A stretch of 32,000 nt of DNA from Saccharolobus solfataricus (GCF_900079115.1 NZ_LT549890.1:1860001-1892000); one strand, 5' to 3'. Shown: positions 3,065 to 29,428, counted from the stretch's first letter. Translations and numbers: made by a program. The notes: generated by a model from the sequence alone, not told the origin.

Positions 3065-4147
3065 ACAACATTTACAAGCGTAAACTAACTTTATAGGAGT
3101 CGACGAATTCGGAACTAGGAAGCTTATATAAGTACAGTATACTTCTCCAGTTACTAAATACTTGCAAAATCCGGGAGGTAAGAAGCAATAACTTTATCCC
3201 TACTGCTCACCAAATGGAGTCCAGAATAGATGGTGGAAACGATGATGACGTAACCCTCACCCTTCCCGGTAGACCCAAAATCGTATTATGAAAAATAATT
3301 CTGACAGAATAATATCGATTCATGATAGATAACAGGATTTATATGAGTATTAAGAATTCAGTTGAAGAAAGGGTTTAAGGTGAGGGAGATGTGGTATTAC
3401 CACGTGAGTAAGTGAGATGGTAACACCCGGTCTCCCTCACCAAAATAACATTCAACAAATAGGATATAAATTACTTTCCATGCTGAACTTCAAGGGAAAG
3501 AAAGGGGAAGAGGTGGCGAGAACCCTCATCTCAGCGTGTTTATGGAACGATTCGGTGGAAAGCAAGTCGAGGGCGTATGGCGTGTCCCCACAGACCGTGA
3601 CGAATTACGTAGAGAAACAAGGGGTGGAAGTTATTGAGAAACTCTTGGAAAGCGCCAGGAAGATATCCTTGAAGGTACTGAAGGGAGTCAAGGAGATAGA
3701 CCTCTCAATAGACTGGACAACCAAGATCTGGTACGGGAGACCGGTGGGAGGGCTCGGGAGTTCGGAGGAGGGAAACTCTTGGAACTACGCAACTGCGACG
3801 ACAAAGTTTAACGGGAAAGTGCTCCTACTGGCCTTCGTCACTCAAGTCAAGGGGATGACTAAGGAAGAGATCGTGAAGGCCCTCGTGGAGCAAGTCGTCG
3901 CCATGGGGTTCAAGATAAGGTTGATGACTCTCGACGCTGGTTTCTACACGATTGACGTGCTCAACTTCGTTTCGCAGTTCAAGTACGTAATCGGAGTTCC
4001 TGTTGGGGACGTGAAGGTCTACCAGGAGTTTGACGGCGAGTACGAGACTAACAGTAAGAGGCACAGGAGGGACGAGCAGGTCAAGTTCAGGCTCCTCGTG
4101 TACAGCAAGGAGAAGGTTAAGAGAAAGAGGAAGACTCTCGTTTACTT

Positions 4148-5479
4148 GGGGCTACTGGGTATAGTTGTGTGAGAAAATATGTAAGCAGAAGGTTAAAAGT
4201 CTTCATCAAGACTCACCTGGAACCTTGAAGCGTGGAGTTGTTTGAGATGATATGAGTAATGCCTTATCACCGACATGGGCCTGAACTTCCAACGCGAATT
4301 ACTTTCATGGATCGAAACGTAGAGATAGACCTCCAAGGAGCGAAGAGAGGGAAAGTAACCTCCGAGCTCCTCCTCAAACCTAGCCAGGGTCAAGTTGAAA
4401 CTCTCCGACGTGTTATTAGTGTAGAGGTAGTGTCTAATCTCCCTGGGGAAGTTGAGAAAGGAACAATACTTGTCAGCAGCGTCAAGAAGCCTCTTGGCTC
4501 GGGCTGGAGAAAAGGGTTGGACAAGTTGGCTGAGGGACAATATAGCCTTCCTTCCCTCCTCCACGTTCCTGGAGGACTTTAGATCCCTAACTCTAATCAT
4601 TAGTTCCTCCTTCTCCTTGTCTGGGAGGACCCTCATGAGGTTCCTAACCATGTGTGTTATACAGAGCTGGTGTTGAGAGGAGGGAAAGAGCGTGGACACG
4701 ACGCGATCGAGTCCAGAGAAGTCATCGCTCACGATTACGTCAACCCTACTGACTCCCCTGCTTACAAGTCCGCTCAAGAAGGACTTCCAACCGTCCAAGT
4801 CCTCCCTATCCCTAACTTCGTAGTCCAAGACGAACTTATTCCCTTCTAAGTCAACTCCTATGGCAATGTAAATGGCTCTCTCCATGATCGACTCGCTGAT
4901 TCTGACCTTTACGATCTTCACATCGATGTAAAGGGCTAGGAGATCGTGAGGTAGTTCGCGGCTCTTGTATTCCTTGAGTTTGTTGGATATTCTCTCGGCA
5001 ACCCGATTCATTACGATCTCACTATACGGTATTCCCTTGGCTGCTAACACGGCCTTGACTTGACTTGGAGTCATGCCTGATAGAACGAGCTGCTGGAGGA
5101 AGTCCTCGTAATCTGGGCTGGTCCTCTCGTACTTCTCCGGAAGGATCTTGGGTCTGAAGCCACCCTTTCTGGTTCTCGGTACTCTGAGTCTTAATACTCC
5201 GTCTCCGGTTCCCAGATATCTGAAGTAGGTCCCGTTCTTGTGGTCGTCCTCAACTTCTAGGTAGGCTTCCCTCTCTTCCATCATGGCCTCTTGCAAGATT
5301 ATCTCCTCTATTTCCCTTAGGCTAACTCCTTCTTTGATTGCCTTTCTTATCTTTTCTCTTATTTCTTCCATTACCTTCATGGTATTACTCTCCCTTATGG
5401 TATTACCCCTTCCGGGGTTATTTTTACTTTTTGTCATTATTTTTCACCTTTTGCTACCACAACTATAACTGGTAGCCCC
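4148..5479 (-). mobile_element. IS256-family insertion sequence, exactly 1,332 bp (ISC1332-like by size and family), nested in IS copy 1
   Basis: The imperfect terminal inverted repeats are GGGGCTACTGGGTATAGTTGTG (4148-4169) and CACAACTATAACTGGTAGCCCC (5458-5479). They are flanked by a 9-bp direct duplication, CGTTTACTT, at 4139-4147 and 5480-5488. Confidence 0.85.
4193..5437 (-). CDS. IS256-family (Mutator-like) transposase
   Basis: The 414-aa ORF carries ...REAYLEVEDDHKNGTYFRYLGTGDGVLRLRVPRTRKGGFRPKILP...ALYIDVKIVKVR...VVSDDFSGL...QLCITHMVRNL...TNNTSESFN, the typical IS256 transposase pattern. Confidence 0.9.
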   Translation of the reverse strand: MTKSKNNPGRGNTIRESNTMKVMEEIREKIRKAIKEGVSLREIEEIILQEAMMEEREAYLEVEDDHKNGTYFRYLGTGDGVLRLRVPRTRKGGFRPKILPEKYERTSPDYEDFLQQLVLSGMTPSQVKAVLAAKGIPYSEIVMNRVAERISNKLKEYKSRELPHDLLALYIDVKIVKVRISESIMERAIYIAIGVDLEGNKFVLDYEVRDREDLDGWKSFLSGLVSRGVSRVDVIVSDDFSGLDRVVSTLFPSSQHQLCITHMVRNLMRVLPDKEKEELMIRVRDLKSSRNVEEGRKAILSLSQLVQPFSPARAKRLLDAADKYCSFLNFPREIRHYLYTNNTSESFNLTLARFEEELGGYFPSLRSLEVYLYVSIHESNSRWKFRPMSVIRHYSYHLKQLHASRFQVSLDEDF

Positions 5480-5832
5480 CGTTTACTTCGCTAGGGCTAC
5501 AAACCTCGACCTACCGAAGGGGGAGGTGTTGAAGTTGTACAACAAGGTGAGGGGTCCCATAGAGACCTCTTATAGGAACATTAAGGCTTTTCTCCCATTC
5601 ACCAGTTCCACCAAGTTCGTCTTCCGCACGTTGATCTTCGTGCTGGCCGTGGCCTTCTACTCCCTGTACACCGTGTTCAAGGGGGAGGTGAGGAGGGAGC
5701 AGTTCAGGATACTCCTAATACTCTTGTTTTCTGATGATCTATTCTATCTAAAAGATTTTCTATTTAAATCAATAGAACCGCTTATTAATAATATAGATTT
5801 ATTTTCAAGGAGGTGATTTTGGGTCTACCGTA

Positions 5833-7539
5833 ATGGGTGCGGCTTCCCTAGCCATCATCTCGGTGCTCACGCACATGGCATTCAAGAAGGAGGAGGAGAA
5901 CTACCTCAAGGAGATCATTGAGTTGAGGGAGAGCCTTGAGAGGTTGAGGAGACGGGATGGCGAGTTTAATGAGTTGGGTAGGTTGTTGGTCTATAGGGTT
6001 GCCTACGCAATGGGGATGAGTTATGATGAGGCAAAGAAGGCACTAATGGACATAACAGGCTTGAGCATAGATGAGCTGGAGAGGAGGGTTAACGAGATTG
6101 AGAAGAAGATTAAGAAGCTTGAGAAGAAGATTAAGTTGTTCAGGCAGGAGGTGCCTGCGGGCATAGTCACGGCTGATGTTGGTGAGTTCGCGAAAGGTAG
6201 GATTTACCCAAACATCAAGGTTGAGAACGGCGAGTTGAGGGTTAGGGTTGAGGATGGGTACCACAGCATTGTTAGGGCAGGTAAATTCAACGAATTGGTT
6301 AACGAGGTTAGGGATAGGCTTTTGAAGCAGGGCTTCGTTGTAATCGTTGGACCCAAGGGTATTGGCAAGTCCACGCTAGCCGCAGCCGTGATTTGGAAGT
6401 TGTTCATGAACGGCGATATTGGGCTAGTTGCACGTGTTGAGGTGCTTGATTCGAAGAATTACCCGAAGTTTGTCACATTCGTTGAGAACTTCGGTAAGGA
6501 ATTCGGCAAGTACTTCGGTAGGTTGCTCATACTCTACGACCCAGTGTCAACCGAAGCCTATGAGAGAGTGGACATTGATGTGAAGGCATTCATACAAACA
6601 AACATCAAGAGGACAATAAAGGACTTGATGAATGCCATAAAATCGATAAGCTCCGAAGCTTCGAAACCGCTCACACTCATCGTGATACCGAGCGATGTCT
6701 ACAACGCATTGAGTGGGGAAATGAGGAATGCGTTAGAGGTATATAGGCTTGACGTTTCGCAGGGACTCATCAACACCGAATTCCTGGCTGAGTTGATTAG
6801 GGAGTACACGAGGACCAAGAGCAACCCCAACGGGTGTGCATTAAGTGATAGGGAACTTAGTGAATTAACCGGCGAATTAGCAAAGTTCGACTCCGGCCAC
6901 GCACTAATAGCTAGGCTCATCGGCGAGGAACTGGCGAGGAACAATTGTAGTGCCCGTGAGATCAAGGAGTTAATCAGCAAAGCCAAGGGTAAAGCCGAGA
7001 AGTTCATAATACTACACATAAACGGATTATTTAAGGTCCATAAGAACACTAACACGGCCAATGCCTTGGTCGAAATCTTCGCATTGAGGAGGCCATTCGT
7101 TGATTCAGTAAGGCCAGGCGTCCCAATACTGACGCCAGGCATTATTGAGCTAATTGGCGAGAAAAAGGGATCGAGTTTGCTCCAGAGTGCTGAGGGTGGG
7201 GAGTTGAGGGGTTGGTTAGTTATTAGGCAGCACGACCTAATTGAGGAGGCAATAAAGAAGCTGCTTATATGCATCGTGAATAGGAGTAAGGAGTGCGAGG
7301 AACTTGGTGATGAGTTGGAGCCCTGGCGCCTAGGAACTGTTAGGAGGTCGTTAAGGGAGGTCTCGGAGAAGGTAAGGGATGTAAGCACTGCCGTTGAGTA
7401 TTTCGTAGGCAACTACGGCAAGGATTTCACAGACGCACTAAGGGATTTCAGCAATGAGTGCTGGAAGAGGGCCGCGTTAATCATTGGGTATGCCTCGGCT
7501 GGGCGTGTTTCAGTGCCTAGGCACGAGGACTTACCTTAG
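5833..7539 (+). CDS. P-loop NTPase (STAND / archaeal-ATPase-like) with an N-terminal coiled coil. It is the 5' part of a longer frame that a TAG at 7537-7539 terminates.
   Basis: Walker A GPKGIGKST is at nt 6349-6375. Walker-B-like LLILYDP lies about 50 aa later. A coiled-coil segment reads ELERRVNEIEKKIKKLEKKIK. Coding-like composition differs markedly from the neighbouring DNA. Confidence 0.7.
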   Translation: MGAASLAIISVLTHMAFKKEEENYLKEIIELRESLERLRRRDGEFNELGRLLVYRVAYAMGMSYDEAKKALMDITGLSIDELERRVNEIEKKIKKLEKKIKLFRQEVPAGIVTADVGEFAKGRIYPNIKVENGELRVRVEDGYHSIVRAGKFNELVNEVRDRLLKQGFVVIVGPKGIGKSTLAAAVIWKLFMNGDIGLVARVEVLDSKNYPKFVTFVENFGKEFGKYFGRLLILYDPVSTEAYERVDIDVKAFIQTNIKRTIKDLMNAIKSISSEASKPLTLIVIPSDVYNALSGEMRNALEVYRLDVSQGLINTEFLAELIREYTRTKSNPNGCALSDRELSELTGELAKFDSGHALIARLIGEELARNNCSAREIKELISKAKGKAEKFIILHINGLFKVHKNTNTANALVEIFALRRPFVDSVRPGVPILTPGIIELIGEKKGSSLLQSAEGGELRGWLVIRQHDLIEEAIKKLLICIVNRSKECEELGDELEPWRLGTVRRSLREVSEKVRDVSTAVEYFVGNYGKDFTDALRDFSNECWKRAALIIGYASAGRVSVPRHEDLP

Positions 7540-7542
7540 AGC

Positions 7543-9465
7543 TTGAGGAGAGATGTTGATGAGTCCCTTGGTGATGCTTTAAGGGAATGCGATGTTGATT
7601 ATTACCTACTCGTTGGTAACGAAATACCGCCATTAATAATAGGTCTAGTAATAATGGGTCTAGCTTATACACTTGCCTTGACCTTAGCATTCATCGATAG
7701 GTACAATGAGGCCGTTGCCGAGGTGAATAGGATCCTTAACATCGCCAGGGGTAGGGGCAGTATTTATGACGCTGAGAGTTTTTATGGTCTTGGGCTAGCC
7801 TCAATAATCGCCAACGCCGCCAGGTTAGGCAGGGATGTCAAGCCCGGCGATGCCGATATAGCATTGCGCATAGCGTCATTCACTATACAACGTGTTGCAT
7901 CACCAGACCTCATTAAGTCAGTGCTAGGTGCCTTAGAACCGTTGCATGGTAAGGCACCACATAGGTACCTCGAACTACTAGCCGCCGCATTGAATATGGA
8001 GAACCTCGACCTTATCACAGTTAGGTACATATTTGATAAGCTGAATGAGATTTTAGACAATTACTGTGATGTGGTTAGGGGGTATGCCTGGTCCCTCGTA
8101 CATGCAATAATTGCCTACGCCAACCTGCTTAGTAGATACTTTGGTCATTTCAATAGTGAGGAAGTTGGGGATATGGTTGGTAGGGTTGTTGATTTGCTCA
8201 ATGAGTTGGGTAGGTTCAAGTCCAGCCTGGGCGTCATTGCTCGGGCGGATGCTTTAGCCCCAGCGTTAGATAGTGAGTATGTGAGGGGGCTTATGAAGGA
8301 GAAACTAGGCATTGATGTGGTTGGTAAGGCTAGTGAGATCCTTGAGGAACTAAACGATATGAGAGAGAGGGTTCAGGAGTTAATGGGCGATAAGGAATTC
8401 ATGAGCTACATCGAATCCAGGTCCGTAAAGGCTGATGAGGAGGCAGTTAGGAGATCAATCCTTGAGGCAGCATCGCATCTCAAGCACGCATTGGTGTTTT
8501 ATAGGCTTGATAATAATGAGCTTGATGAGGCGAGGGACCTATTTAACGAGGCAGCTGAGGAGCGTAGGGAGATCGGTGATTACGAAGACTACCTAGTTGC
8601 ACGTAGTTTGGCATTGCGTGTTGAGGCGATTAAGGGCTCGTTGGTTGGCGAAAAGTTGGTTGATGGGTTTAGGCAATTGTATGAGGAAGCTTTTAATAAG
8701 AAGCGTTTCTCCATGCCCACGGCTAGGTATCTCAGTTTTGCATCGGGTATACTTGGTGAGTACCTCGTGTCCCTGGCCCTAACGGGTGATCACGAAACGA
8801 TAAACAAGTTGCTTGAGGGGCATTTGTGGGTGCTGAACGCCGTTAGGAGCGTCTCGGTCCTGACTAGGCTTATGCTCAACGCCCTACTCAGTCCAAGGGG
8901 TAGGTTAAGCAGCGAGCTTAAGGGTAAGCTTAGCGTCAACCCTGAGGAGTTGATTTATGCCTTTGGATATGATAAGCTTCGTAAGTACCTGCCTGCGTTA
9001 AGGGTTGCCCTTGGTATTGCGAAGCCTGAGGTTGGAATTAAGTTGTGTGAAGAGTTTAACGATGAAGTTTGCATAGATTTCGTCTTGGCAGTTAAGGGAA
9101 ACAGTGCTGTTGTTAAACAGTTAAGAGAAGGAGTAATTAATGCTTTTAACAATTCGCTTAAGGGATTTGGTTTTGACGTTGAGTCGTTGATTAATGAGTT
9201 TAGGGGGTTGGTGAGCGGGCTTGATGGCAGGTCCCTAGTCCAACTAATCGCCCCCTCAAACTCAATGGCTCAGTTAGCCCTAATGCTCCGCGCATTGATT
9301 AATGGTAATAAGGAACTAGCCAAGGCACACGCACTCTATGGAGCTATTTATTATTCCAGGAAGTTGCTCAGGAGGTTGTACCTTGAGGTCTATAAGGAGT
9401 GTTGCGACTTGGAGAGTGAGTCGTTTAGGCTTGCCTTAGCCAGGCTCTTCTTCTTCCACGTTTAG
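7543..9465 (+). CDS. Large all-helical (TPR-like by eye) protein in the same frame as the upstream NTPase ORF; probably its C-terminal sensor or repeat region
   Basis: The 640-codon open frame begins one codon after the TAG. The listed start is a TTG, and the first in-frame ATG is about 38 codons in. I saw no intergenic spacer, TATA box or SD. Confidence 0.6.
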   Translation: MRRDVDESLGDALRECDVDYYLLVGNEIPPLIIGLVIMGLAYTLALTLAFIDRYNEAVAEVNRILNIARGRGSIYDAESFYGLGLASIIANAARLGRDVKPGDADIALRIASFTIQRVASPDLIKSVLGALEPLHGKAPHRYLELLAAALNMENLDLITVRYIFDKLNEILDNYCDVVRGYAWSLVHAIIAYANLLSRYFGHFNSEEVGDMVGRVVDLLNELGRFKSSLGVIARADALAPALDSEYVRGLMKEKLGIDVVGKASEILEELNDMRERVQELMGDKEFMSYIESRSVKADEEAVRRSILEAASHLKHALVFYRLDNNELDEARDLFNEAAEERREIGDYEDYLVARSLALRVEAIKGSLVGEKLVDGFRQLYEEAFNKKRFSMPTARYLSFASGILGEYLVSLALTGDHETINKLLEGHLWVLNAVRSVSVLTRLMLNALLSPRGRLSSELKGKLSVNPEELIYAFGYDKLRKYLPALRVALGIAKPEVGIKLCEEFNDEVCIDFVLAVKGNSAVVKQLREGVINAFNNSLKGFGFDVESLINEFRGLVSGLDGRSLVQLIAPSNSMAQLALMLRALINGNKELAKAHALYGAIYYSRKLLRRLYLEVYKECCDLESESFRLALARLFFFHV

Positions 9466-9698
9466 CCCTGGGGAGTCAGTCTCGGAGTTCTGGTCTGTTC
9501 TCATTGTCTAGTTGGCACGGCTTGTGTAATCGAGGTTGTAGTCAGGGTGGTGAATTGATGCTTAGATGATGAGCGTTAATGCATAAATCCTAGTGCTCGT
9601 TATTGCCTTACCAGCGCGGTTGTGGTTAGGGCTGGGTCTTGGTTGTATTGTGAGGTTGAGCATCTACCAGTGACCATGATTAGGGTGCCGAGAGACGC

Positions 9699-9965
9699 TT
9701 GGCGTGGTCAAACCCTGCATCCATCTCAGCAGTTGCTTGGTTTGTTTGGGCCGTAATGCTTAAAGGGTTTGTTTGTTTTGGTGGTGTTATGGGTGCGTTG
9801 AAGTACGTGGCCATTGGCGTTGTGGTTTTCGCCACCACTGTGTTTTACTACTACCGACACCGGGTGCCTGTGCAGTACGTGGGTTCACCCAGCGGTTATG
9901 AGGCATTTGTACCAAATGGTCAAGCAATAAATTATAATGGACATACAGATCCTGTGGTGATTTAA
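9699..9965 (+). CDS. Small putative membrane protein; the likelier start is ATG 9789 (MGALKYVAIGVVVFATTVFYYY...)
   Basis: The ORF has one clear hydrophobic helix. The listed start is TTG. The ORF straddles the GC-rich to AT-rich transition. Confidence 0.3.
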   Translation: MAWSNPASISAVAWFVWAVMLKGFVCFGGVMGALKYVAIGVVVFATTVFYYYRHRVPVQYVGSPSGYEAFVPNGQAINYNGHTDPVVI

Positions 9966-9982
9966 TACTAAGTAATGGAACT

Positions 9983-10432
9983 ATGATACAAAATGTGGTA
10001 TGGGATGGACAATATGCAGGTACAATAATTCAAAATCATTACCAAATAGTTCAATTGAATGATGAATGGGTAGGAAGAACCGACCCAGTGAATAATCAAC
10101 AATATGTAACTTTTCAAGATTTCTACGTGATCAAGGGTCAAGTACCAATTGAGAATGTAACAATAAATGGACAGACGTATTACGTGATAGATGCGGATAA
10201 AATAAACCCAGCGGACATCGCGGGATTTTTCACATACTGGAGATGGGTAAACAACTTCGTAACAGCAATAAACACACCAGGAACATATGCAGCAGTACTA
10301 CCAGGGAACTCACCAGTATTCACCTGGGAAAACCTAACAGGAGCAGTAGCATATGAAACGCGCAGGAACGGAATTATGGGTCTCGATTGGGGAATTGTAT
10401 TAACCCAATGGAACTATAATTCCATACGGTAG
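9983..10432 (+). CDS. Hypothetical N/Q/Y/W/T-rich protein
   Basis: This is a 149-aa ORF. A TTTAATACTAAG TATA-like element lies about 15-25 nt upstream of the ATG. I recognised no motif. Confidence 0.4.
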   Translation: MIQNVVWDGQYAGTIIQNHYQIVQLNDEWVGRTDPVNNQQYVTFQDFYVIKGQVPIENVTINGQTYYVIDADKINPADIAGFFTYWRWVNNFVTAINTPGTYAAVLPGNSPVFTWENLTGAVAYETRRNGIMGLDWGIVLTQWNYNSIR

Positions 10433-11101: not shown

Positions 11102-11763
11102 AAAAGCAAAATAATTTAATCCTTCATGTGGTGCTTAAAACCGCAAAAATTCAACAACAAATCCTCGGTGCAAATCTCAAGTACCATTTTCTAAGCTTCT
11201 CGTGCCTAGGGCTCCAGTAGCGAGCAATTAATATGCAGAACTCGCTGCTTTGCTGTGTAGTGTGTTCGCAACGCTCTCCGGCATGCTCATCCGCGTGTGA
11301 ATGGCTCGTGGAGCTCGAGATCTGTGGGGTTAATACTGCCTTCGGAGTTTTCGATGAGAACGTTGATCAAGATAAAAGGAATCAAGTGTTTCTTAAGGGG
11401 CAGGATAATGATGATGATGAATGAATAAGTAATGAATAAAATTCTCAGCTCATGTTTTTGCTTTTATCTACTTGCTGGATGCGTAGAAAGAGATTTTTTC
11501 CTCCTCTTGAGCTTCTTACAAGTTCTAAATAAATAGGCCTCAAGACGTTTGCTGTCGAAAAGACCTTTCATGATTATTAAATTTCATTCATATATTGTAA
11601 TATTAAGTTATTAATACTGAAGCTAAACTAACTTATTAATCTTTATCTTATATGGCAGTAATTGACCTCCTTTTTATCGTGATAAATTATATTTATAGAG
11701 ATAATAACGAGAAAAATATCGTGGATAAAAGCGCGTAAGAACTTTTGTATTATGAATTATACA

Positions 11764-11794: not shown

Positions 11795-12388
11795 ATGACT
11801 AGTGGAGCTGGATGGGAAGAGCAGGTATTTTTACCAATAACAAATTCTATTTCTTCTGAGGATAATAATCAAATAAAAATTGGAAGTAGTGTTTCAATAG
11901 AATATAATCAGAATGGACAACATGTCAGTCAAATCGATGATAAGGGGCTTCATAATATCTTAGTACTTACAGGTTATGCAATAGATGAAAGTACCGGCGA
12001 ACTAGTACCTACTTTTGATCCTTGTGATTACGTAAAAGGAATTTTGATAAGTGGTAAAATTTTAAAAGGTAACCATTTTAAGATTATCGGCATTCCTTCA
12101 AACAAATTATATATAATTCGCAAGAAGGACGTGCATGGAAATATAACTTTTAGTCTTCCAATAAAAAACTTTAATACGGGAACCTATCAAGTAGATCTAA
12201 GAGATAAAGTCACATCGTTTGTAAGTTTAGACCGAGATGTCGCTAAGACAATTGTTGACAATGTTTTAGCGAAAATCTATGCGAAAATCTATAATAGTTT
12301 AAATAAAGAGCAAAAGGATAAGCTTTATAGGGATGTAGAAGAAATATTCAACTACTATTCAATAAAAAGTTTAAAATCGAATCCCTAA
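11795..12388 (+). CDS. cmr7: Cmr7-like Sulfolobales-specific Cmr subunit
   Basis: The 197-aa ORF is the first gene of the Cmr operon, directly upstream of cmr4. Its position and size match the Cmr7 subunit described for S. solfataricus/S. islandicus Cmr complexes. It has no RAMP motifs. Confidence 0.55.
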   Translation: MTSGAGWEEQVFLPITNSISSEDNNQIKIGSSVSIEYNQNGQHVSQIDDKGLHNILVLTGYAIDESTGELVPTFDPCDYVKGILISGKILKGNHFKIIGIPSNKLYIIRKKDVHGNITFSLPIKNFNTGTYQVDLRDKVTSFVSLDRDVAKTIVDNVLAKIYAKIYNSLNKEQKDKLYRDVEEIFNYYSIKSLKSNP

Positions 12389-12401
12389 GATATATTGCTA
12401 A

Positions 12402-13328
12402 GTGATTATAATGACTTATTACACTTTTGTTAAACCTTTTTTTATTAAGGCAGTAACTCACTTGCATGTAAGTTCTGGAACATCTGTAGAAGAGGAAGTA
12501 GATTTACCTTTTCAAAGAGATGAGTTAAACTATCCCACAATATTTGCATCTAGTCTTAAGGGTGCAATAAAATCGTTCCTACTAAAGGAATATAGTAATG
12601 CAAGAGAAATAATTTATAAGGTTTTAGGTTCTGACGAAAATCCTGACGAAGCCTCTCTAGGATCTTTTTTGGATGCAGTTCTTTTTGCTATTCCTGCCAG
12701 AAGTATAGGCGTTAGCGGTCTCGATGAAGCATGGGTTTATGTTACCACGTATGAACTTCTCAGGAAGGTAAAATCACTTCTAGAATCGATGAACACTTTA
12801 TCCGCTACACAATTTACCTCTCTTCTGGACGCTATTAATAACATTCTCCAAGAGAGTAAAAATTTGATAATTTCTGATAATGCGGCTAGTGTGATCTTAA
12901 ACGAGGACTTTTACGTAGAATTGAGTAATATTCAAAACGAGTATATTCAGTCTCTTTTAGGAGACATGCTAATTGAGAATTCAACGTATAACCAGAGTAA
13001 CCAAAATTCTCAGTCTCAAGGAAACCACTTAGTAAAGCCTTTAATAGTCCTTAAGGATTCAATAGGTAGGGAAGTGATTAATAGGTCATTAATAAGAGTG
13101 AGAAGGATAAAAATTAAGAGAAGTAGTAAAACCGTGGAAGAAGGTGGTTTATGGTCTGAAGAATATGTTCCAGTGAACTCATTGTTCTTTTCCTCTTTTT
13201 TAGCTAGAGGAAGTAAGGATACCGCATATTTTGCTGACTGTATTTTAAGGAAAACAAGATACTTAATTTTAGGAGGTAAGGAAACTATAGGTAAAGGAAT
13301 TGTTGAATTGAGGTGGTTAAATGACTGA
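12402..13328 (+). CDS. cmr4: Cmr4 (Cas7-family RAMP backbone subunit)
   Basis: AVTHLHVSSGTSVEEEVDLPFQRDELNYPTIFASSLKGAIKSF is the Cmr4 N-terminal RAMP motif. The C-terminal G-rich loop reads LILGGKETIGKGIVEL. Confidence 0.85.
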   Translation: MIIMTYYTFVKPFFIKAVTHLHVSSGTSVEEEVDLPFQRDELNYPTIFASSLKGAIKSFLLKEYSNAREIIYKVLGSDENPDEASLGSFLDAVLFAIPARSIGVSGLDEAWVYVTTYELLRKVKSLLESMNTLSATQFTSLLDAINNILQESKNLIISDNAASVILNEDFYVELSNIQNEYIQSLLGDMLIENSTYNQSNQNSQSQGNHLVKPLIVLKDSIGREVINRSLIRVRRIKIKRSSKTVEEGGLWSEEYVPVNSLFFSSFLARGSKDTAYFADCILRKTRYLILGGKETIGKGIVELRWLND

Positions 13329-13791
13329 AGTACAAGAGGAGAAAGATTATAAACTAGCTATTGAGGCATTTAACCTAGTCTATAATGCTCTAGATAAGAA
13401 GGCTAGAGAAAAATTTAGGAGTAGGGCAAGGGATATGGTGGAGGAGATATATACTTCTGGGTTCATCCCCACGTTGTTTTACATAATATCAAAAGCTGGG
13501 TTAGAGAATAATAATGATAAACTAACCGCGTTATTAAATTCTCCCTCTTCAAAGAGCATTGATCTGGGCAGTAGCGATGAGGCTTCTTATATGGCCTATT
13601 TGTTTGTCATTCTGTACTATCTGTCTGAGAGAAACATTATAAATAAAGAGTTTCTAATTAATAAACTCAAGAATAACCGTTTAGAACTCATAGACAAGTT
13701 GTATGAGTTGTCTCCTATAATTTCCGCCAGGATAAAGAGGTATTTAATGGCAATAAAGAGATTGGCTGAGGCTTTAATAGAGGTGAGGTAA
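13321..13791 (+). CDS. cmr5: Cmr5 (type III-B small subunit)
   Basis: This 156-aa helical protein lies between cmr4 and cmr1. It overlaps the cmr4 stop by 8 nt. Confidence 0.75.
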   Translation: MTEVQEEKDYKLAIEAFNLVYNALDKKAREKFRSRARDMVEEIYTSGFIPTLFYIISKAGLENNNDKLTALLNSPSSKSIDLGSSDEASYMAYLFVILYYLSERNIINKEFLINKLKNNRLELIDKLYELSPIISARIKRYLMAIKRLAEALIEVR

Positions 13792-15195
13792 ATGGAGGAG
13801 TTGTTAATGTCTTTTAAGCTAAAGGCTATTTATCCGTTAACCGGAGGTTATAATAGGCATAGTATAAACGAATTTTATGAAGAGAACGTTAGGCCTACTG
13901 AAATTAAGGGTTTATGGAGGTGGTGGAATAGGGTTTTATTCAATACAGTAAGTTATGTGAAAGAAGGAAAGCTTTACACTTACGACTCTATAGATAGGCT
14001 ATTTGAGGACGTTTTCGGAAGTGAAAACAAGAAGTCTGCAGTAAGGTTAGAGGTGATAACTGATGAGGGAAGCGATAATCATTTTGAACTATCTAATGTT
14101 GAGTTAGATAATGTGATAGATTGCCTAAAGGCAAATAGGGAAGAAAAAGTGAATTTAGACTTTAGAGATAATACGCTAATTATTGAAATAGAAGGCTCAA
14201 CTAAAATTCCCATTTCTTTTAAATCTAATTTAGATATAGATAAAATTAAGGATCTAGTATATAAGAATAAACTTCTTAGCTTTGAGCTCTTAGGTTTTAA
14301 GAGTATTAAAATAGATACAAAGATTTCTGATAAGGAAGTAATTAAGGAAATCTTGCGTGATCTAATTACAAATTATTTAGAATACTTTAATATTAAGCAA
14401 GAAGTTACATTCACTCTTAATATTTATCTAGATAAGAGTCTTAAGCATAAGCAAAACTTTGATGCTAAGCTTAAGTTTGCGCTACATAGTCTATTAGTTT
14501 TTATACTGTTAGGAGGAATTGGAAGGAAAACAAGTAGAGGATTTGGTGGTTTATCAATAGTTAATGCAGAATGTCACGACGGATTATGTGGTGAAATATA
14601 TGGAATAGTAAATAATATGGAGTCAGAAAAAGAAAAAAAGGATCTCGCTACAGTTCTTCCAAATATCATTTTTTCGCAAACTATTGAACAATATTTTAGT
14701 GAGCTAATAAATAATGAAAGCTATAAATTGAGATCATGGAATAATAACTCAGATTTTTTTGTTTATTATTTTATAAAAGATATCAATATATTGAGAATTA
14801 ATAGAATAGACACTAACGTTAACAGAAATGGGATAGAAAATATCTTAAATAGGATATCTAATGAACTATCAGCCTCTGGTAACTGCCTTAAAGACCTCAT
14901 AATGCAAGAAATGAGAAGGAGAGCCTTTGCTTTAGCATTTCTTGGAAATAGAAAATTTAGAAATATTCATGAAATTTATCCTAGAATATTGGAATTTCTA
15001 TACGCTAATTACATCAAAAGAGAATTTGTAAATTTGATAGGAAAAGAAAGAAGGTTATCCAACTTAAGGTTTAAGATTCTTGAGATCAATAATACTTATT
15101 ATATAATTTCATATTTACTTTATTCCAGTTATCTTAAAGATCCAAATTCGAGCATAAAGGATACGTTATATCAGTTTGCTAGATGTGTGATTTAA
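13792..15195 (+). CDS. cmr1: Cmr1 (RAMP)
   Basis: RPTEIKGLWRWWNRVLF is the hallmark Cmr1 motif. The G-rich loop reads LLGGIGRKTSRGFGGLSI. The start abuts the cmr5 stop (TAAATG). Confidence 0.8.
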   Translation: MEELLMSFKLKAIYPLTGGYNRHSINEFYEENVRPTEIKGLWRWWNRVLFNTVSYVKEGKLYTYDSIDRLFEDVFGSENKKSAVRLEVITDEGSDNHFELSNVELDNVIDCLKANREEKVNLDFRDNTLIIEIEGSTKIPISFKSNLDIDKIKDLVYKNKLLSFELLGFKSIKIDTKISDKEVIKEILRDLITNYLEYFNIKQEVTFTLNIYLDKSLKHKQNFDAKLKFALHSLLVFILLGGIGRKTSRGFGGLSIVNAECHDGLCGEIYGIVNNMESEKEKKDLATVLPNIIFSQTIEQYFSELINNESYKLRSWNNNSDFFVYYFIKDINILRINRIDTNVNRNGIENILNRISNELSASGNCLKDLIMQEMRRRAFALAFLGNRKFRNIHEIYPRILEFLYANYIKREFVNLIGKERRLSNLRFKILEINNTYYIISYLLYSSYLKDPNSSIKDTLYQFARCVI

Positions 15196-15196
15196 A

Positions 15197-16051
15197 ATGA
15201 AAATGAGTATAAGTACTCATTTACCAAGAATTTTAGACACATTAAATAGAAATAATATTAATCTATTCTCGGCACTGAGTTTAACCAGCATAGTATACAA
15301 TAACTTTGGAGAATTTCTCTCGAATAAACAGTCATATAGTGCTAATAACCCACTATTAAAGTATCAAATTATAATCCTAAAAGATAAAAATAAAACTAAG
15401 GATGTCGAAGAGAAGAAAAGCCTATTTAAGAGGGAAATAGCTGAACTTGTCTCAAGGAACTTTAAATTAGAGGGCGAAAAAGTAAAGAAATATTTTGATA
15501 ATCTCAAAGAAATACTAAAGTCGTTAAAATACACGATAGTAGACTTTGAAATAACTACTAGGACGAGGGCTTTAATAGGAGTTTCAACTTCTTTAGGTAA
15601 GCTGATTTTTGACTCTGGGATTTCTTTCGATCCATACATGAACTTGCCTTACATACCTGCATCTGAAATTAAAGGTATTGTGAGAAGTTATATTGAGGAT
15701 AAACTAGGCGAGCAAGATGCTGAGGAAATTTTCGGTAATGAGGAAATGGAAGGTAATGTAAACTTTACAGATGCCTATCCTACTAGGCCTGAGAATTTCT
15801 TGTTTGTACCAGACGTAATTACACCTCATTATAATAAGAAGAAGTCTGAGGCTGATGCTGAGCCTAAGCCGGCTATTCATTTAACTATAGCTCCTAAAGT
15901 TTCGTTTAGATTTTTAATTTACTATAAGAGGGAAGATGTAGGAAAACCAATTTGTGATTCCTTACCTCTGGTGATTATGAAAGGTTTAGGTGCTAGATCT
16001 TCTGTTGGATATTCCTTATTTGAATTAAGTAAGATAGAGGTGATTAGATGA
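15197..16051 (+). CDS. cmr6: Cmr6 (RAMP)
   Basis: It carries PYIPASEIKGIVRSYIE and a C-terminal GLGARSSVGYSLFEL G-rich loop. An ATGA overlap links it to cmr2. Confidence 0.8.
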   Translation: MKMSISTHLPRILDTLNRNNINLFSALSLTSIVYNNFGEFLSNKQSYSANNPLLKYQIIILKDKNKTKDVEEKKSLFKREIAELVSRNFKLEGEKVKKYFDNLKEILKSLKYTIVDFEITTRTRALIGVSTSLGKLIFDSGISFDPYMNLPYIPASEIKGIVRSYIEDKLGEQDAEEIFGNEEMEGNVNFTDAYPTRPENFLFVPDVITPHYNKKKSEADAEPKPAIHLTIAPKVSFRFLIYYKREDVGKPICDSLPLVIMKGLGARSSVGYSLFELSKIEVIR

Positions 16052-19000
16052 GTACTGATGATAATTCTAGAGAAGAATTCTTAAACTACAAAATTATGGC
16101 ATTACTTCATGATCCTCCAAATAAGGCGTGGGTGATAACAAGTCGTGCACATAATCTAACAGTGCAGTTAAGAAGCGTAAGAGCTAGGAAAAGTCATGAA
16201 AGAGTGGCTAAGTATATAATCAATCAATTATTCGGCGATATTAATTCTAAAACAGTTGATAATGCAGACAAATTAGCTAGTTCCATAGATAGATATCTAG
16301 GTAGTATCGTATATAAAGAATATAGCTTATTCAGAAATAGATCAATATTCTTAAAGAACATACTTCTATCAAATATTCAAAGGGATGTAGGCAATTTATT
16401 TCCTAAAGATAAATCTAAACTAGATAATTTAATATCAGAATATAAAAAGCTATTAAATGTTACAAATACAACTAATCTTAATATTTTGAAATATCAATTG
16501 TTTTATCTAATTTATGAACTAATATGGATAGATTCTAGATATGAAAATACTCCTGCAGAGACTAGAAACCCTACTCACACAATATTTGACCATTTATATG
16601 CAACTGCTGCAATGATGAACTGGATATTTAGTCTAGAGAAAGAAGCAAAAGGTTACTTACTAGGAATAGATACTATAGGAGTTGCGGACTTCATAAGCAA
16701 GGGAAAGAAGACTAGGGACTTATGGATTTCTAGTTATTTAGTGTCAGCCCTACTCTGGTACGTAATTACCTGGTTTATTGAGGAGTACGGCCCTGACGTT
16801 ATACTTTTCCCCTCGTTAAGGTTTAATCAATTTTATGCGTTTTACCTTTTAGAAAAATTAAGAAAAGAAAAAATATCAGAGGATGTTATAGATGAAATAA
16901 AGGAGTTAATAACTAAGTACATATTTAATGGTGACGATCTGTTTGAGAAATTGGAAATCCCGCCCTATCCGATAATACCTGGTAGGATTACGTTAATCTT
17001 ACCGGGGTTAATAAGGGAAGGTGAAGAATATACGCAAGTTCCAGACGATAATTACTTCATTTCTAAGGTAAAGGAGAGATATAATGAAGGTTGGCGTAAG
17101 CTAATTGAGGGATTAAAGTGTTATTCTGAACTAAAGAGGGAAGATGGTTTCTGGAATTTAGTATGTAGAGTGTTAAAACTGACGGAGGATTTACTTCAAA
17201 CTACTCCTTTAAACATTCGTGTGAAACAAGTGAGTGTAACTAAGGATGAGATATTTAACAATAGCAAATTACGCTCAGATTCGTGGAAGATTTACGACAA
17301 TAAATATCGTCAATTAGTTAGTGAGTTTAAGAAGAGTAAATTAGTGAAAGTTACTCCCGAGTCACGCTTAAAATTATTTGAATTAACTAAATTTGACAAG
17401 TTACCTCAAATTGGTGAGAAATCTAAAAGAGGTTACGAATTCTGTACTTCATGTGGTGTTTTGCCAGCGGTAATTATAATGCCCAAGGAAGACGAATTCG
17501 AGAAAAAATTAATTGAGCTCGGAATTGCGAGAGACGAGAAAGACGTAAGATCTATAAAGAATATGATTTCACCAGGTGAGAGGCTTTGCCCATGGTGTTT
17601 AGTGAAAAGGGCCTTAGGTGCTGAGCCCAGACTTATGAGAATTCTTTTGCTAGGAGATCTTTGCAGCGTTGAGAAGATTGTAAATGAAATCGTTAGTAAA
17701 GATGTTAAGATAGAAATTCCGTCAACTAGTGATATTGCATCGATTAAAACTTTTGAGGAAATGATTGAGAAGAAAAACGAAATCTGTGAAGATCTAAAGG
17801 AAGAGGAAGTTTGCGAGAAGCCTAATGAGAGTATGCTTTCTATGTGGCAGCGGTTTAATAAAAATTACTATACTGGGATAAATCTTACTATAGATCCTGA
17901 GGAGTATTGGTTTAGTGAAAAGAGGAGGAGATATTATTTCTCTCTCTTTAGAAGACATAGAATAACTTTTCCATCACCTTATTACGCTTTAGTTAGGGCT
18001 GATAGCGATTACTTAGGGGATTTGTTAGAAGGTAAGTTAACTCCTTATTTGGCTGGAATTATTGATTCTGGAGATTATGCTAATATTAGTGAGAAGAAAG
18101 AGGAAGTAAATAAATTATTAGAGGAATATTTAGTAAATGCCGGAAGTGGGCCAATAGTAGATTACGTTAAGACAGTATTAGAGTGTATAAGGGGAAATTT
18201 AAATAAGTGTTCATGTGCAGTGAAAATTTATTCTAACGAAGTTGCCGAAGTAATGTTTAGGGCAAATCGTCTGTTACGTAAAAAACTCGAAAAGATAGAC
18301 GTAGAGAGAGAAGTCGAAAACAGTCTTAAATATTTTAGAACTATTTTGAAAGAGGGAAGGATAATAGTTACTCCCGCTTGGCATGTATCGATTTCTTCAG
18401 CACTCAATAGGGGGCTTCTCGTAGAATTAGAATTGATTAATAAACATAAGGGATTTGTAATTTATGCGGGGGGAGATGATTTATTGGCAATGTTGCCAGT
18501 AGATGAAGTTTTAGATTTTGTTAAGGAGAGTAGGAGGGCATTTGCAGGAGTTAGTACTGGAAGATTAGGTAACATGTGCTTAGAGAATGGATTCGCTAGA
18601 ATCAATAATGCTTACTATCCTTCATTACCTATAGTAGGCAGATCGTATTCTGTAATTATAGCACATTATGCCGATCCTCTATTTTTCGTCATAAATGATT
18701 CTTATAATCTTTTAGAGGAGGGGAAGGAAATGATAAGATATAGAGTAATGTATAACGGAGAATATAAGGACGCTAAGAAGGATGTTGCAATATTTAGATA
18801 TCAAGGTTTAACATCAGTAATTCCATTATCGTTAAAGAGACCTATAGTTAACTCTGTGAGTGACTTTAATGAAATAGCCTCTATCATAGACTTAATATTA
18901 GAATTAAAGAAGAGGATCGATGAGGGTCATATTTCCGTGTCCTTACTTTATGATTATGAGGAGTATAAACACTTAATCGTAGCTAGTGATGAGAAGTATT

Positions 19001-19185
19001 TAACTGAATTCTTAGTAAAGGATTGGATAAAAAGAAATTCTCTTAGAAAACACGTTGAGTTTACTATAGACGAGAAGTTATACGGTGTTAGGTTAACTAT
19101 TGAAAATTATCCGATTAAAATTCCTAATGACCTAATTTCTAACATTGTTTATACTCTTAGAATAATTTACGGTGGCGAGAAGTGA
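16048..19185 (+). CDS. cmr2: Cmr2 / Cas10 large subunit
   Basis: The 1,045-aa product has the ALLHDPPNKAW N-terminal Cmr2 motif and NPTHTIFDHLYATAAMM. A Cys cluster reads CTSCG...CPWC. An intact GGDD cyclase motif (VIYAGGDDLLAMLP) is at nt 18469-18480. Confidence 0.9.
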   Translation: MSTDDNSREEFLNYKIMALLHDPPNKAWVITSRAHNLTVQLRSVRARKSHERVAKYIINQLFGDINSKTVDNADKLASSIDRYLGSIVYKEYSLFRNRSIFLKNILLSNIQRDVGNLFPKDKSKLDNLISEYKKLLNVTNTTNLNILKYQLFYLIYELIWIDSRYENTPAETRNPTHTIFDHLYATAAMMNWIFSLEKEAKGYLLGIDTIGVADFISKGKKTRDLWISSYLVSALLWYVITWFIEEYGPDVILFPSLRFNQFYAFYLLEKLRKEKISEDVIDEIKELITKYIFNGDDLFEKLEIPPYPIIPGRITLILPGLIREGEEYTQVPDDNYFISKVKERYNEGWRKLIEGLKCYSELKREDGFWNLVCRVLKLTEDLLQTTPLNIRVKQVSVTKDEIFNNSKLRSDSWKIYDNKYRQLVSEFKKSKLVKVTPESRLKLFELTKFDKLPQIGEKSKRGYEFCTSCGVLPAVIIMPKEDEFEKKLIELGIARDEKDVRSIKNMISPGERLCPWCLVKRALGAEPRLMRILLLGDLCSVEKIVNEIVSKDVKIEIPSTSDIASIKTFEEMIEKKNEICEDLKEEEVCEKPNESMLSMWQRFNKNYYTGINLTIDPEEYWFSEKRRRYYFSLFRRHRITFPSPYYALVRADSDYLGDLLEGKLTPYLAGIIDSGDYANISEKKEEVNKLLEEYLVNAGSGPIVDYVKTVLECIRGNLNKCSCAVKIYSNEVAEVMFRANRLLRKKLEKIDVEREVENSLKYFRTILKEGRIIVTPAWHVSISSALNRGLLVELELINKHKGFVIYAGGDDLLAMLPVDEVLDFVKESRRAFAGVSTGRLGNMCLENGFARINNAYYPSLPIVGRSYSVIIAHYADPLFFVINDSYNLLEEGKEMIRYRVMYNGEYKDAKKDVAIFRYQGLTSVIPLSLKRPIVNSVSDFNEIASIIDLILELKKRIDEGHISVSLLYDYEEYKHLIVASDEKYLTEFLVKDWIKRNSLRKHVEFTIDEKLYGVRLTIENYPIKIPNDLISNIVYTLRIIYGGEK

Positions 19186-20126
19186 TGAAGAGAGTGTTAA
19201 TAAAACCATTAGAACCGTTAATGTTTAGAAGTCAGGGGGAATTTGAGCCCTTAATTACCGGTTCCCACACTGCAGCACAGTCTTTAATAATACCAAGACC
19301 TTCTACAATTGCCGGAATGTTAGGTTATATATTATTTAACAAGAGTTCTGGGACTGGGGACTGGTTATCGGACTTAACGAATTTGCTAGATACTATATAT
19401 GGAACTTTCATAGAGACTAATGGAGAGTATTTATTTCCTCTCAGAATGGGCAATCATTTAGCTTTAGTAGACCAACAACATCTTATAAATCTACCTATTT
19501 TGCTAGAAAAAGAGTACGAACAACGGGAGAAGGGGATTTATGAACTTTTTTATGATAAAAATAAACTATTCCAGATCATAAATCATCAAGATAGGATAGG
19601 AATAAGTATAGATAAAAGTACCAGAACTGTTAAGGAACATTATCTTTACTCAGCTAGATATTTAGCATTTAAGAAGGAGGTTAATTACGTAATATTCATA
19701 GATAATGATGCGATAAGTGATAAGATAAATGGTAAAATAGTGAACTTTGGAGGAGAAAATAGAATAGCTAAGCTTGAAGTTGATGATTATAAAGTGGATA
19801 CAAGTATTGAAGAAGAGTATTACTTAACACTATCTCCTATCTTAATTCCCGATGAAGCTTTAGATGATTTACTTGATAACATAAGCGATTATGTTACAAT
19901 GGGTAAGGTGGATAAGATAAGCTTAGGATTCGATATTGCTAATACTAAAAGAAAAGAGATGCTAACGGCTATTTTAGAGGGTAGTATAGTCAAGAGAAGT
20001 ATTATTGATTTTATTAAAAAGGAGATTAACAACAATTTGCTAGATAGGTTTACTAAATATGAAAAAATAGGATATAACACTCTTATGAATCTTTGCAAGT
20101 TAGCGTTCAGAAAGATATTAAGCTAA
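19182..20126 (+). CDS. cmr3: Cmr3 (Cas5-like)
   Basis: The N-terminus VLIKPLEPLMFRSQGEFEP is typical of Cmr3. The gene overlaps the cmr2 stop and is last in the operon. Confidence 0.8.
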   Translation: MMKRVLIKPLEPLMFRSQGEFEPLITGSHTAAQSLIIPRPSTIAGMLGYILFNKSSGTGDWLSDLTNLLDTIYGTFIETNGEYLFPLRMGNHLALVDQQHLINLPILLEKEYEQREKGIYELFYDKNKLFQIINHQDRIGISIDKSTRTVKEHYLYSARYLAFKKEVNYVIFIDNDAISDKINGKIVNFGGENRIAKLEVDDYKVDTSIEEEYYLTLSPILIPDEALDDLLDNISDYVTMGKVDKISLGFDIANTKRKEMLTAILEGSIVKRSIIDFIKKEINNNLLDRFTKYEKIGYNTLMNLCKLAFRKILS

Positions 20127-20231: not shown

Positions 20232-20720
20232 TTAAGGGTCATTCAAGGTTTTCACAATTTTCTGAAAAACTTCTAATTTATAGACCGTATTTAAGTCTAT
20301 GTTTCTTATACGTTTAGGTAAGTCACTCTTTTCATATCTATCATGCGTTCTCAAATATTCTAACGGATTGTTCTCTTGTGGTGCTAAGAGTATTTCAATA
20401 TGAGGATTGAAAACAATGATACAAACTCTATTCATATCTACACCATTTCTTTTTAACATATCTTTTATCCTATTTTCCAGTATTTGGGAGTCTTCATTAT
20501 CGCTGTCCACAAAGATCATGATTTTGTCGTATCCTTTAAAAATGGAACTTTTTACAATTCTTACTGTCTTTGCAGAGATTATATTTCCTTTTCCGCCCAT
20601 AGAATGACAATCTAATTTGATTTCATTTTCTATCTTTTTGTTCTCTTCAAGTTTTCTGATTAATTCAGCGATTGCACTGCAACCGTATTTATCTTCTGTA
20701 ATTGCTAGAATTATTTTCAT
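20232..20720 (-). CDS. Small Toprim-like (DUF4276/RloB/OLD-C-terminal-like) protein
   Basis: The 162-aa product has an E...DxD...E pattern: ILAITEDKYG, then IMIFVDSDNED, then FNPHIEILL. It lies 10 nt downstream of the ATPase gene and is evidently co-transcribed with it. Confidence 0.55.
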   Translation of the reverse strand: MKIILAITEDKYGCSAIAELIRKLEENKKIENEIKLDCHSMGGKGNIISAKTVRIVKSSIFKGYDKIMIFVDSDNEDSQILENRIKDMLKRNGVDMNRVCIIVFNPHIEILLAPQENNPLEYLRTHDRYEKSDLPKRIRNIDLNTVYKLEVFQKIVKTLNDP

Positions 20721-29038: not shown

Positions 29039-29428
29039 GTGAGGGTAGCCAACTTGTTGGCTGTGGGCTTCCTCTATAGCGAGTCTCCAACACTAGTGGA
29101 TAGGTTTGCTAATGCCTTATCCAAAGAGGCTGTGACTAAGGTTCTATATGATGTTCAAAGGATTGTACAGATGGGTATTGATAGGGGTGAGATAGTGAGC
29201 ACGACAACTATGATTCAAGGAAAGGAATATCCCGCTGTTAACGTGTCTTCAAGTGAGGGGAAGTACACGGTAGTGGGTTATCTACCGACTAACCAAGATA
29301 TAGAATATTTTCTTAGGATGATTGAGGAAGATGTGTATTATGCTAGGAAGGCTGGTGCGTTAGCCATGAGTATAGCAAATAGGACTAAGTTAGTTAGTAA
29401 GAGTGAACAAGGTGGTGAAAAGAAATGA
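29039..29428 (+). CDS. csa5: Csa5 (type I-A small subunit)
   Basis: The 129-aa ORF lies directly upstream of, and overlaps, cas7(csa2). The start is GTG, with GGAGGG 8 nt upstream. Its position and size match Csa5 of Sulfolobus type I-A modules. Confidence 0.7.

Follow-up and report, generated by a model that had tools for sequence, protein, structure and literature searches.

The genome of Saccharolobus solfataricus contains, at positions 5833 to 9465 of the 32,000-nucleotide stretch analysed here (GCF_900079115.1, NZ_LT549890.1:1860001-1892000; hereafter, the window), two long open reading frames (ORFs) on the forward strand that stand in the same frame and almost touch, which raises the question of whether they are two genes, one gene with two products or one gene that has been broken. 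The upstream ORF (5833..7539, 568 amino acids) begins with ATG and the downstream ORF (7543..9465, 640 amino acids) with TTG, its first ATG being codon 38. Only a TAG (7537-7539) and one AGC codon (7540-7542) lie between the two, and the translation reads ...HEDLP*SLRRDVDES...; the ORF listing and the translation are both in agreement with the first-pass annotation on this arrangement. That annotation, made from the sequence alone, had proposed a single gene of ~1,209 codons for a STAND/Avs-like sensor, either freshly inactivated or expressed as two products. By exact-sequence look-up in S. solfataricus P2, the first half is deposited as AAK42172.1 (WP_009990957; UniProt Q97WX9, 'ATPase') and the second as AAK42173.1 (WP_010923710; UniProt Q97WX8). 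From the consecutive numbering of the accessions the halves are probably SSO1982 and SSO1983; a literature search for these two names gave nothing. The locus is very probably the non-functional remnant of one large gene that was acquired horizontally.

The conceptually joined protein was used as a search query and returned 306 matches. Among the best 120 of the 306, which are 56–84% identical to the query, nearly all are single proteins of 1,450–1,550 amino acids that cover 100% of it; more than 100 uninterrupted relatives, from Vulcanisaeta, Thermocladium, Pyrobaculum and Sulfolobales archaeon Acd1, span the whole of the joined sequence. In the closest protein (P0001, 1,470 amino acids), residues 263–831 pair with the first ORF (5833..7536, 84% identity) and residues 833–1470 with the second (7540..9465, 82% identity), while residue 832, at the position of the stop, is glutamate. 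The downstream part runs to the native C-terminus, with the native stop at 9463-9465, and one tblastn alignment of P0001 (residues 252–1470 onto 5800–9462, 83% identity) crosses the TAG. With more than 100 uninterrupted relatives and an alignment that passes through the stop, the continuity of the halves is not due to chance.

The closest DNA, on a metagenome contig (L001), is 90.6% identical to the window over 5833–9520 and has GAG where the window has TAG, within a surrounding stretch of 94% identity. The in-frame TAG at 7537..7539 is accordingly a nonsense mutation of a glutamate codon. Across 90 full-length relatives the corresponding column holds glutamate in 54, lysine in 10, serine in 8, glycine in 5, asparagine and aspartate in 3 each, tryptophan and methionine in 1 each and a gap in 5, with a stop in none. 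The AGC-TTG that follows the TAG consists of the same Ser-Leu codons as in the intact genes, unchanged, and the TTG at 7543 is therefore not a start codon that has evolved there. By comparison with the intact sequences, both apparent starts (ATG at 5833, TTG at 7543) are plain methionine and leucine codons from within the ancestral gene. These alignments show a single-gene origin for the two ORFs. One gene split by an in-frame stop is what the first-pass annotation had supposed, and the uninterrupted orthologues in Thermoproteota for which it had recommended a search are plentiful.

The gene is also incomplete at its 5' end. Intact relatives are ~262 residues longer N-terminally, and the additional region is a conserved domain with a P-loop of its own (GPPxSGK, YxPPGLV). 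The window's ATG at 5833 corresponds to the internal Met263 of these proteins, DNA homology to the metagenome contig starts exactly there, and tblastn detected no trace of residues 1–262 anywhere in the 32-kb window. Directly upstream of 5833 lies the right terminal inverted repeat of a copy of the insertion sequence (IS) ISC1225. What had been taken for a complete gene of ~1,209 codons has thus lost its first ~262 codons, and with them a P-loop domain, at a nest of ISC1225 and ISC1332. Of the three-part layout proposed earlier, the NTPase and the helical region stand, while the hydrophobic 'N-terminus' is in fact residue 263 onward of a protein of ~1,470 amino acids.

The ISC1225 copy (ISH3/IS4-type; 3267..5830, forward strand), whose right end abuts the truncated gene, has the terminal inverted repeat CGGTAGACCCAAAATC at 3267-3282 and 5815-5830, and its ORF at 3417-4172 is deposited as 'First ORF in transposon ISC1225'. 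Inside it sits ISC1332 (IS256 family; 4148..5479, reverse strand), a simple insertion with 30-nt terminal inverted repeats, a perfect 9-bp target duplication (CGTTTACTT at 4139-4147 and 5480-5488) and a transposase at 4193-5437 on the reverse strand (Pfam Transposase_mut at 1e-67; deposited under the name of the ISC1332 transposase). Removal of ISC1332 together with one copy of the duplication yields a 1,223-bp ISC1225 with a transposase ORF of 355 amino acids, which the insertion splits into the annotated ORFs of 251 and 96 amino acids. No target duplication flanks the ISC1225 copy at 3267-5830 (TTCC versus TAAT). At 22011-23200 lies a second ISC1225-type copy, which has the orientation of the first and shares 83% identity with it; here a GC-rich palindrome (CCCTCCGCCCC-TTTA-GGGCGGGGAGG) encloses a clean 4-bp duplication, TTTA. 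A comparable imperfect palindrome, GCCGCAACCCCAC-TGAT-GGGTGCGGC, occurs in the intact relatives at the very position where the remnant breaks off; the palindromes at both ISC1225 sites suggest a target preference. The 5' truncation at the IS junction is thus shown to be a second lesion beside the TAG. With the first ~262 codons gone, reversion of the TAG would not restore a complete gene.

The gene is shown to be foreign to S. solfataricus by its base composition, by the close DNA match to the metagenome contig and by relatives that are mainly from Thermoproteales. GC content is 0.46–0.49 over 3–10 kb, versus 0.29–0.36 in most of the window; the remnant itself is 47–48% GC in a genome of 32–36% GC, and genes of the family keep a GC of ~0.47–0.51 whatever the flanks of the host (0.41–0.58). 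None of the 97 columns on which all other family members agree is substituted in the window copy, which has only 2 private residues against a mean of 14 in intact relatives. The ratio of nonsynonymous to synonymous substitution rates (dN/dS) among intact genes is 0.24–0.35 in the N half and 0.46–0.79 in the C half. For the window copy against its closest relative the ratios are 0.45 and 0.95, respectively, a comparison confounded by the mosaic nature of the family, in which the best-matching relative varies segment by segment; against distant relatives the ratios are indistinguishable from those of an intact gene. The absence of decay at conserved sites and the unameliorated GC content point to recent acquisition and recent inactivation, and of the two alternatives considered at the outset, that of a freshly inactivated gene is the supported one.

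A sequence of events can be proposed that accounts for both lesions. ISC1225 would have inserted at codon ~262 of the acquired gene, and the part upstream would then have been lost; the missing target duplication of the element makes recombination between ISC1225 copies the probable route. Promoter, start codon and the complete N-terminal domain would have gone with that part. ISC1332 would later have inserted into that ISC1225. Independently, a single G-to-T change converted the glutamate codon GAG to TAG and so separated the NTPase and solenoid halves. We infer the order of these events.

Three other explanations have to be set against a remnant. A sequencing or assembly error at 7537-7539, which the first-pass annotation had allowed for, would mean that the true gene is uninterrupted at that point. 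The TAG is indeed only one base away from the codon of the closest relative, and the first sequencing of the genome dates back to 2001, but seven further S. solfataricus records carry it: strain 98/2 (ACUK01000195.1), the complete genome CP050869.1 and five assemblies from independent read sets. All seven are 100% identical to the window over the covered region (up to 4.8 kb), and those that reach the 5' end show the same ISC1225 junction. The TAG is therefore real; seven independent and identical records rule out an error for practical purposes, and even without the TAG the gene would still be truncated at its 5' end. A working split sensor made as two functional products, by termination at the TAG followed by reinitiation at the TTG or by partial readthrough, is highly unlikely. 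TAG and TTG are only 3 nt apart and conserved positions are undecayed in both halves, but the AGC-TTG is the ancestral Ser-Leu pair, the stop occurs in 0 of the 90 relatives, and the other broken copies, on plasmid pNOB8 and at a metagenomic locus (L018), break elsewhere and share no common split point. All S. solfataricus records share this arrangement, yet with 0 differences in 4.8 kb this 'conservation' is uninformative on selection, since the strains show no divergence at all. The N-terminal P-loop domain, the start codon and the upstream region have been lost as well, and reinitiation at the TTG would give fragments of a protein already without its N-terminal domain. S. solfataricus does recode fucA1, by a -1 frameshift (PMC1616953, PMC8037382), and there, too, two annotated ORFs correspond to one gene in relatives (PMC1616953). 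However, fucA1 frameshifts at a slippery site to give a functional enzyme, whereas the remnant has an in-frame stop without a conserved signal, a sense codon at that position in relatives, and a 5' truncation; moreover, stop-codon recoding in Archaea is established only for selenocysteine and pyrrolysine (PMC8211752). The readthrough and two-product alternative raised earlier thus finds no footing in the relatives, in the TTG or in the breakpoints of other copies.

It is also unlikely, if a little less so, that the truncated fragment is kept in use, for example as an effector-less decoy or a regulator transcribed from the end of the IS. Shortly before the ATG, the end of ISC1225 contains an AT-rich stretch and a GGAGGTGA motif, but GGAGGTGA overlaps the stop codon of the transposase, 17–24 nt from the ATG. 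The unchanged invariant columns and the few private residues would suit a fragment in use, and the lack of any measurable decay does weigh against a dead gene: it fits very recent inactivation, but taken alone it would also accommodate continued use of a fragment. With GC content still at 0.47–0.48 against a background of ~0.33, however, recent arrival explains the lack of decay without selection. In addition, dN/dS against the closest relative lies above the family baseline in both halves, subject to the mosaicism noted above, and the TAG still removes the sensor half. A recently inactivated, non-functional remnant remains the preferred reading of the locus.

The intact relatives, at ~1,470–1,500 amino acids, comprise an N-terminal P-loop domain of ~260 amino acids (GPPxSGK), a central STAND/AAA+-like NTPase module with a coiled coil in front of it, and a C-terminal alpha-solenoid of ~640 amino acids. 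In the window the upstream part of the pseudogene (5833..7536) retains a hydrophobic helix, the coiled coil, a small beta domain, the P-loop NTPase and helical domains, and the downstream part (7540..9465) is the all-alpha solenoid. Walker A (GPKGIGKST, 6349..6375) spans residues 173–181 of the upstream ORF and the Walker B-like motif (LLILYD, 6523..6540) residues 231–236. Both motifs had been picked out in the first-pass annotation, and the only invariant columns across 60 diverse relatives are G173, G176, G178, K179 and D236, all within them. An AlphaFold2 model of the N half, based on 60 diverse relatives, has a mean predicted local distance difference test score (pLDDT) of 86 and a predicted template modelling score (pTM) of 0.84. 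Its best matches in the PDB by Foldseek are Apaf-1, NRC3, NRC2, CED-4, ZAR1 and SAMD9, over 410–560 columns, with template modelling (TM) scores of only 0.25–0.35. The C half is predicted as an all-alpha solenoid of about 38 helices (pLDDT 92.6, pTM 0.90), and its structural matches are generic TPR, HEAT and ARM repeats only (best E 5e-3), with Pfam TPR_12 reaching no better than E 0.046 by sequence; this result indicates a fold class only, and a sensing role is putative. The models and Foldseek are thus in accord with a P-loop NTPase and, after it, a long region of helical repeats, as described earlier from the sequence. The lost N-terminal domain, which has no Pfam match, is weakly similar to small P-loop kinases (adenylate kinase, AdkA-like, SSO1041; E ~1e-4 to 1e-3).

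STANDs are described as tripartite, with an N-terminal domain, a P-loop NTPase and C-terminal repeats (PMC13581612). A central P-loop NTPase with conserved Walker A and B motifs is present in the family, and the window copy wholly lacks the N-terminal domain of such a layout. Profile searches in Pfam, NCBIfam, PADLOC and PDB sequences gave matches at the level of Walker A only. The N half of the window copy scores 29.3 bits for nSTAND3 (PF20720) against a cut-off of 27.2, over profile positions 7–45 of 155 only, and five intact relatives score 20.8–27.0 bits, below the cut-off. Also below the Pfam cut-offs are ATPase_2 (PF01637; 20.1 versus 33.2), NB-ARC (17.0 versus 23.5), NACHT (12.6 versus 26.7) and AAA_22. 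In PADLOC no Avs model matches, the hits being short P-loop matches (LmuB over 27 residues; mad8 at 20–32 bits), and the C half has no match there. The predicted structures support a STAND/AAA+-like NTPase followed by an alpha-solenoid, with family membership suggested by weak profile matches. Of the STAND/Avs-like character claimed earlier, a resemblance at the level of fold and of a borderline profile therefore survives, and the specific link to Avs models does not.

The closest analogues in defence are the Avs/AVAST STAND NTPases, which share the tripartite layout of the intact relatives (PMC13581612). Avs5 in particular joins nSTAND3 with TPR, Sel1 or PPR repeats, and it is nSTAND3 whose cut-off is reached by the window's N half. 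As with Avs, the C-terminal region of the family evolves faster than the NTPase, and its members are patchy in distribution, present in multiple copies and located near mobile-element and defence genes. In contrast to Avs, the N-terminal domain is a second P-loop rather than a nuclease, Sir2, TIR or protease domain, and the NTPase follows on a coiled coil and a small beta domain. A second comparison is with the NB-ARC proteins Apaf-1, CED-4 and the plant NLRs, which head the structural matches of the N half (3shf at E 5.8e-6). In our own reading, a conserved G(H/Y)(A/T)LIARLxG after the NTPase core may be the counterpart of the NB-ARC 'GLPL' motif. The similarity to these proteins is nevertheless limited to TM-scores of 0.28–0.35 and 11–16% identity, and AAA+ proteins (FtsH/AFG3L2, Rpt, TRIP13, ClpB, ORC) score almost as well.

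A phmmer search of 1.84 billion representatives returned 151 clusters at E <= 0.001, most of them of 1,400–1,500 amino acids with the same layout; judged from these sequences the family is small and coherent. The relatives that carry a name come from metagenome-assembled genomes (MAGs) of Vulcanisaeta and Thermocladium, and at least five paralogues occur in one Vulcanisaeta MAG. A contig scan confirmed three loci, in Acd1, in Pyrobaculum sp. WP30 and, as a distant copy, in a Desulfurococcales MAG; the scan, based on two strict peptide patterns, missed even S. solfataricus and therefore understates the distribution. Intact copies are found adjoining a 426-amino acid archaeal integrase and a block of ORFans (L005), adjoining an integrase fragment (L007), and between a type IIG restriction-modification gene and helicases (L008). 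A relative on pNOB8 (L017, NC_006493.1 11625-15328) belongs to the same family, with 25% identity (E 1e-50) over residues 4–970 of P0001, including an N-terminal GPPKSGKT P-loop. As with the remnant, the annotation divides it into two ORFs, here overlapping and hypothetical (WP_011229436.1 and WP_011229435.1; 620 and 630 amino acids), and it shows that the family travels on conjugative, integrative plasmids of Sulfolobales. Unlike the window copy, it is very divergent and retains the N-terminal domain, and its break is a frameshift at about residue 575 rather than a stop at 832.

Two proteins that might have represented natural short forms were rejected as such. P0170 (625 amino acids; L018 1988-5041, metagenomic, 37% identity) comes from a pseudogene with several frameshifts: the frame changes at least four times, and the C-terminal end is cut short. 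P0158 (402 amino acids, same start) owes its length to a wrong start call, the gene itself (L020) being intact. The end of the L018 locus, a few kilobases downstream of the decayed copy, carries an integrase fragment. In both Pyrobaculum sp. WP30 (L003 ~4608-8977) and Acd1 (L002 1-2426, reverse strand), a second, divergent paralogue with 24–29% identity is located less than 10 kb from the family gene; the one in Pyrobaculum apparently consists of two ORFs.

The pattern of the relatives is that of mobile cargo with fast turnover, which is compatible with a conflict system. We infer that intact members could act as tripartite STAND-type conflict sensors carried on integrative or conjugative elements, in which the solenoid would bind a ligand, the NTPase would oligomerise and the N-terminal domain would serve as the effector. 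More specifically, and tentatively, the intact relatives might constitute an undescribed clade of STAND-type conflict sensors of hyperthermophilic Thermoproteota (about 150 clusters at 50% identity) with a kinase-like P-loop effector, moved between Thermoproteales and Sulfolobales on pNOB8-type elements, mosaic and often lost, of which the S. solfataricus locus would be a recent casualty. Several observations weigh against a STAND or defence assignment. AAA+ proteins score nearly as well as STANDs against the N-half model in Foldseek, at the low TM-scores given above. The profile matches span ~40 residues around Walker A and are at or below their cut-offs, which makes the role in defence, and as a STAND, putative. 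The Walker B-like motif is without the usual second acidic residue after the aspartate, and the similarity of the N-terminal domain to kinases is weak (E ~1e-4), an effector role being likewise putative. Finally, searches of phage records and of IMG/VR contigs gave no relatives, a result on which a viral origin was also rejected.

For annotation, AAK42172/WP_009990957 and AAK42173/WP_010923710 should be treated as a single pseudogene, truncated at the 5' end and interrupted by a nonsense codon; the two halves provide no evidence for recoding or for a working sensor beside the Cmr module. The remnant is in itself an ordinary pseudogene of modest consequence. The locus offers a clean and datable case of gene transfer between orders into S. 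solfataricus, followed by IS-driven erosion within a defence island. The intact family is small and uncharacterised, with proteins of ~1,480 amino acids that combine two P-loops, a STAND-like fold and a fast-evolving solenoid, and on its sequence features it would be a reasonable candidate for archaeal antiviral or anti-plasmid immunity.

Beyond the stop codon, a conserved 3' flank (9466..9650, forward strand) arrived with the gene: it matches the sequence downstream of the family genes of L001, Acd1 (L002) and Pyrobaculum (L003), and GC content remains about 0.45–0.55 as far as ~9900. Within it, 9466-9520 matches the downstream flank in L001, while 9520-9650 is 93% identical to L001 319-448, which lies upstream of that gene. 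The flanks are thus permuted between loci, and a circular element opened at different points may be the reason. Tandem copies of the family gene were rejected as the cause, the ORF upstream in L001 being an unrelated membrane protein.

The flank farther downstream is syntenic with the 'Sulfolobales archaeon Acd1' locus. The neighbouring gene (9789..10432, forward strand) is frameshifted relative to a single 253-amino acid ORF in Acd1 (L002 14632-15393), whose alignment with the window, at 62% identity, uses frame +3 over 9789-9956 and switches to frame +2 from there to 10414. The annotation of the window divides this neighbour into two ORFs (88 and 149 amino acids), and in Acd1 the protein is membrane-anchored. 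At 11265-11380 (L002 9832-9948), ~1.8 kb downstream of the remnant, there is a sharp-edged, GC-rich block of ~117 nt that is 89% identical to the sequence 53–170 nt upstream of the intact family gene in Acd1 and is more conserved than the coding region (76%). An RNA was considered for this block and discarded (no Rfam match, fold z-score 0.28, one compensatory pair from two sequences), and the small ORFs that overlap it do not look coding.

The first-pass annotation had placed the gene in a defence neighbourhood, and this description holds. The window contains a PIN gene, a Cmr7-4-5-1-6-2-3 module (11795-20126), an AbiEii-like ATPase, a CRISPR array and the type I-A cas genes for Csa5 and Cas7; the ORF at 11795 is Cmr7 (SSO1986, PDB code 2X5Q). 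No tRNA genes or Rfam families were detected in the window at gathering thresholds. The CRISPR array (23229-29015) consists of 89 identical 24-nt repeats (CTTTCAATTCTATAGTAGATTAGC) and is located between the second ISC1225-type copy and csa5/cas7 (29039-30390); Tandem Repeats Finder picked up only a 2.4-copy piece of it. Directly after cmr3, an AAA_21/AbiEii-like ABC-type ATPase (20731-21822, reverse strand; E 1e-32) is accompanied by a small unannotated ORF on the same strand (20232-20720), and the two may form a two-gene defence module.

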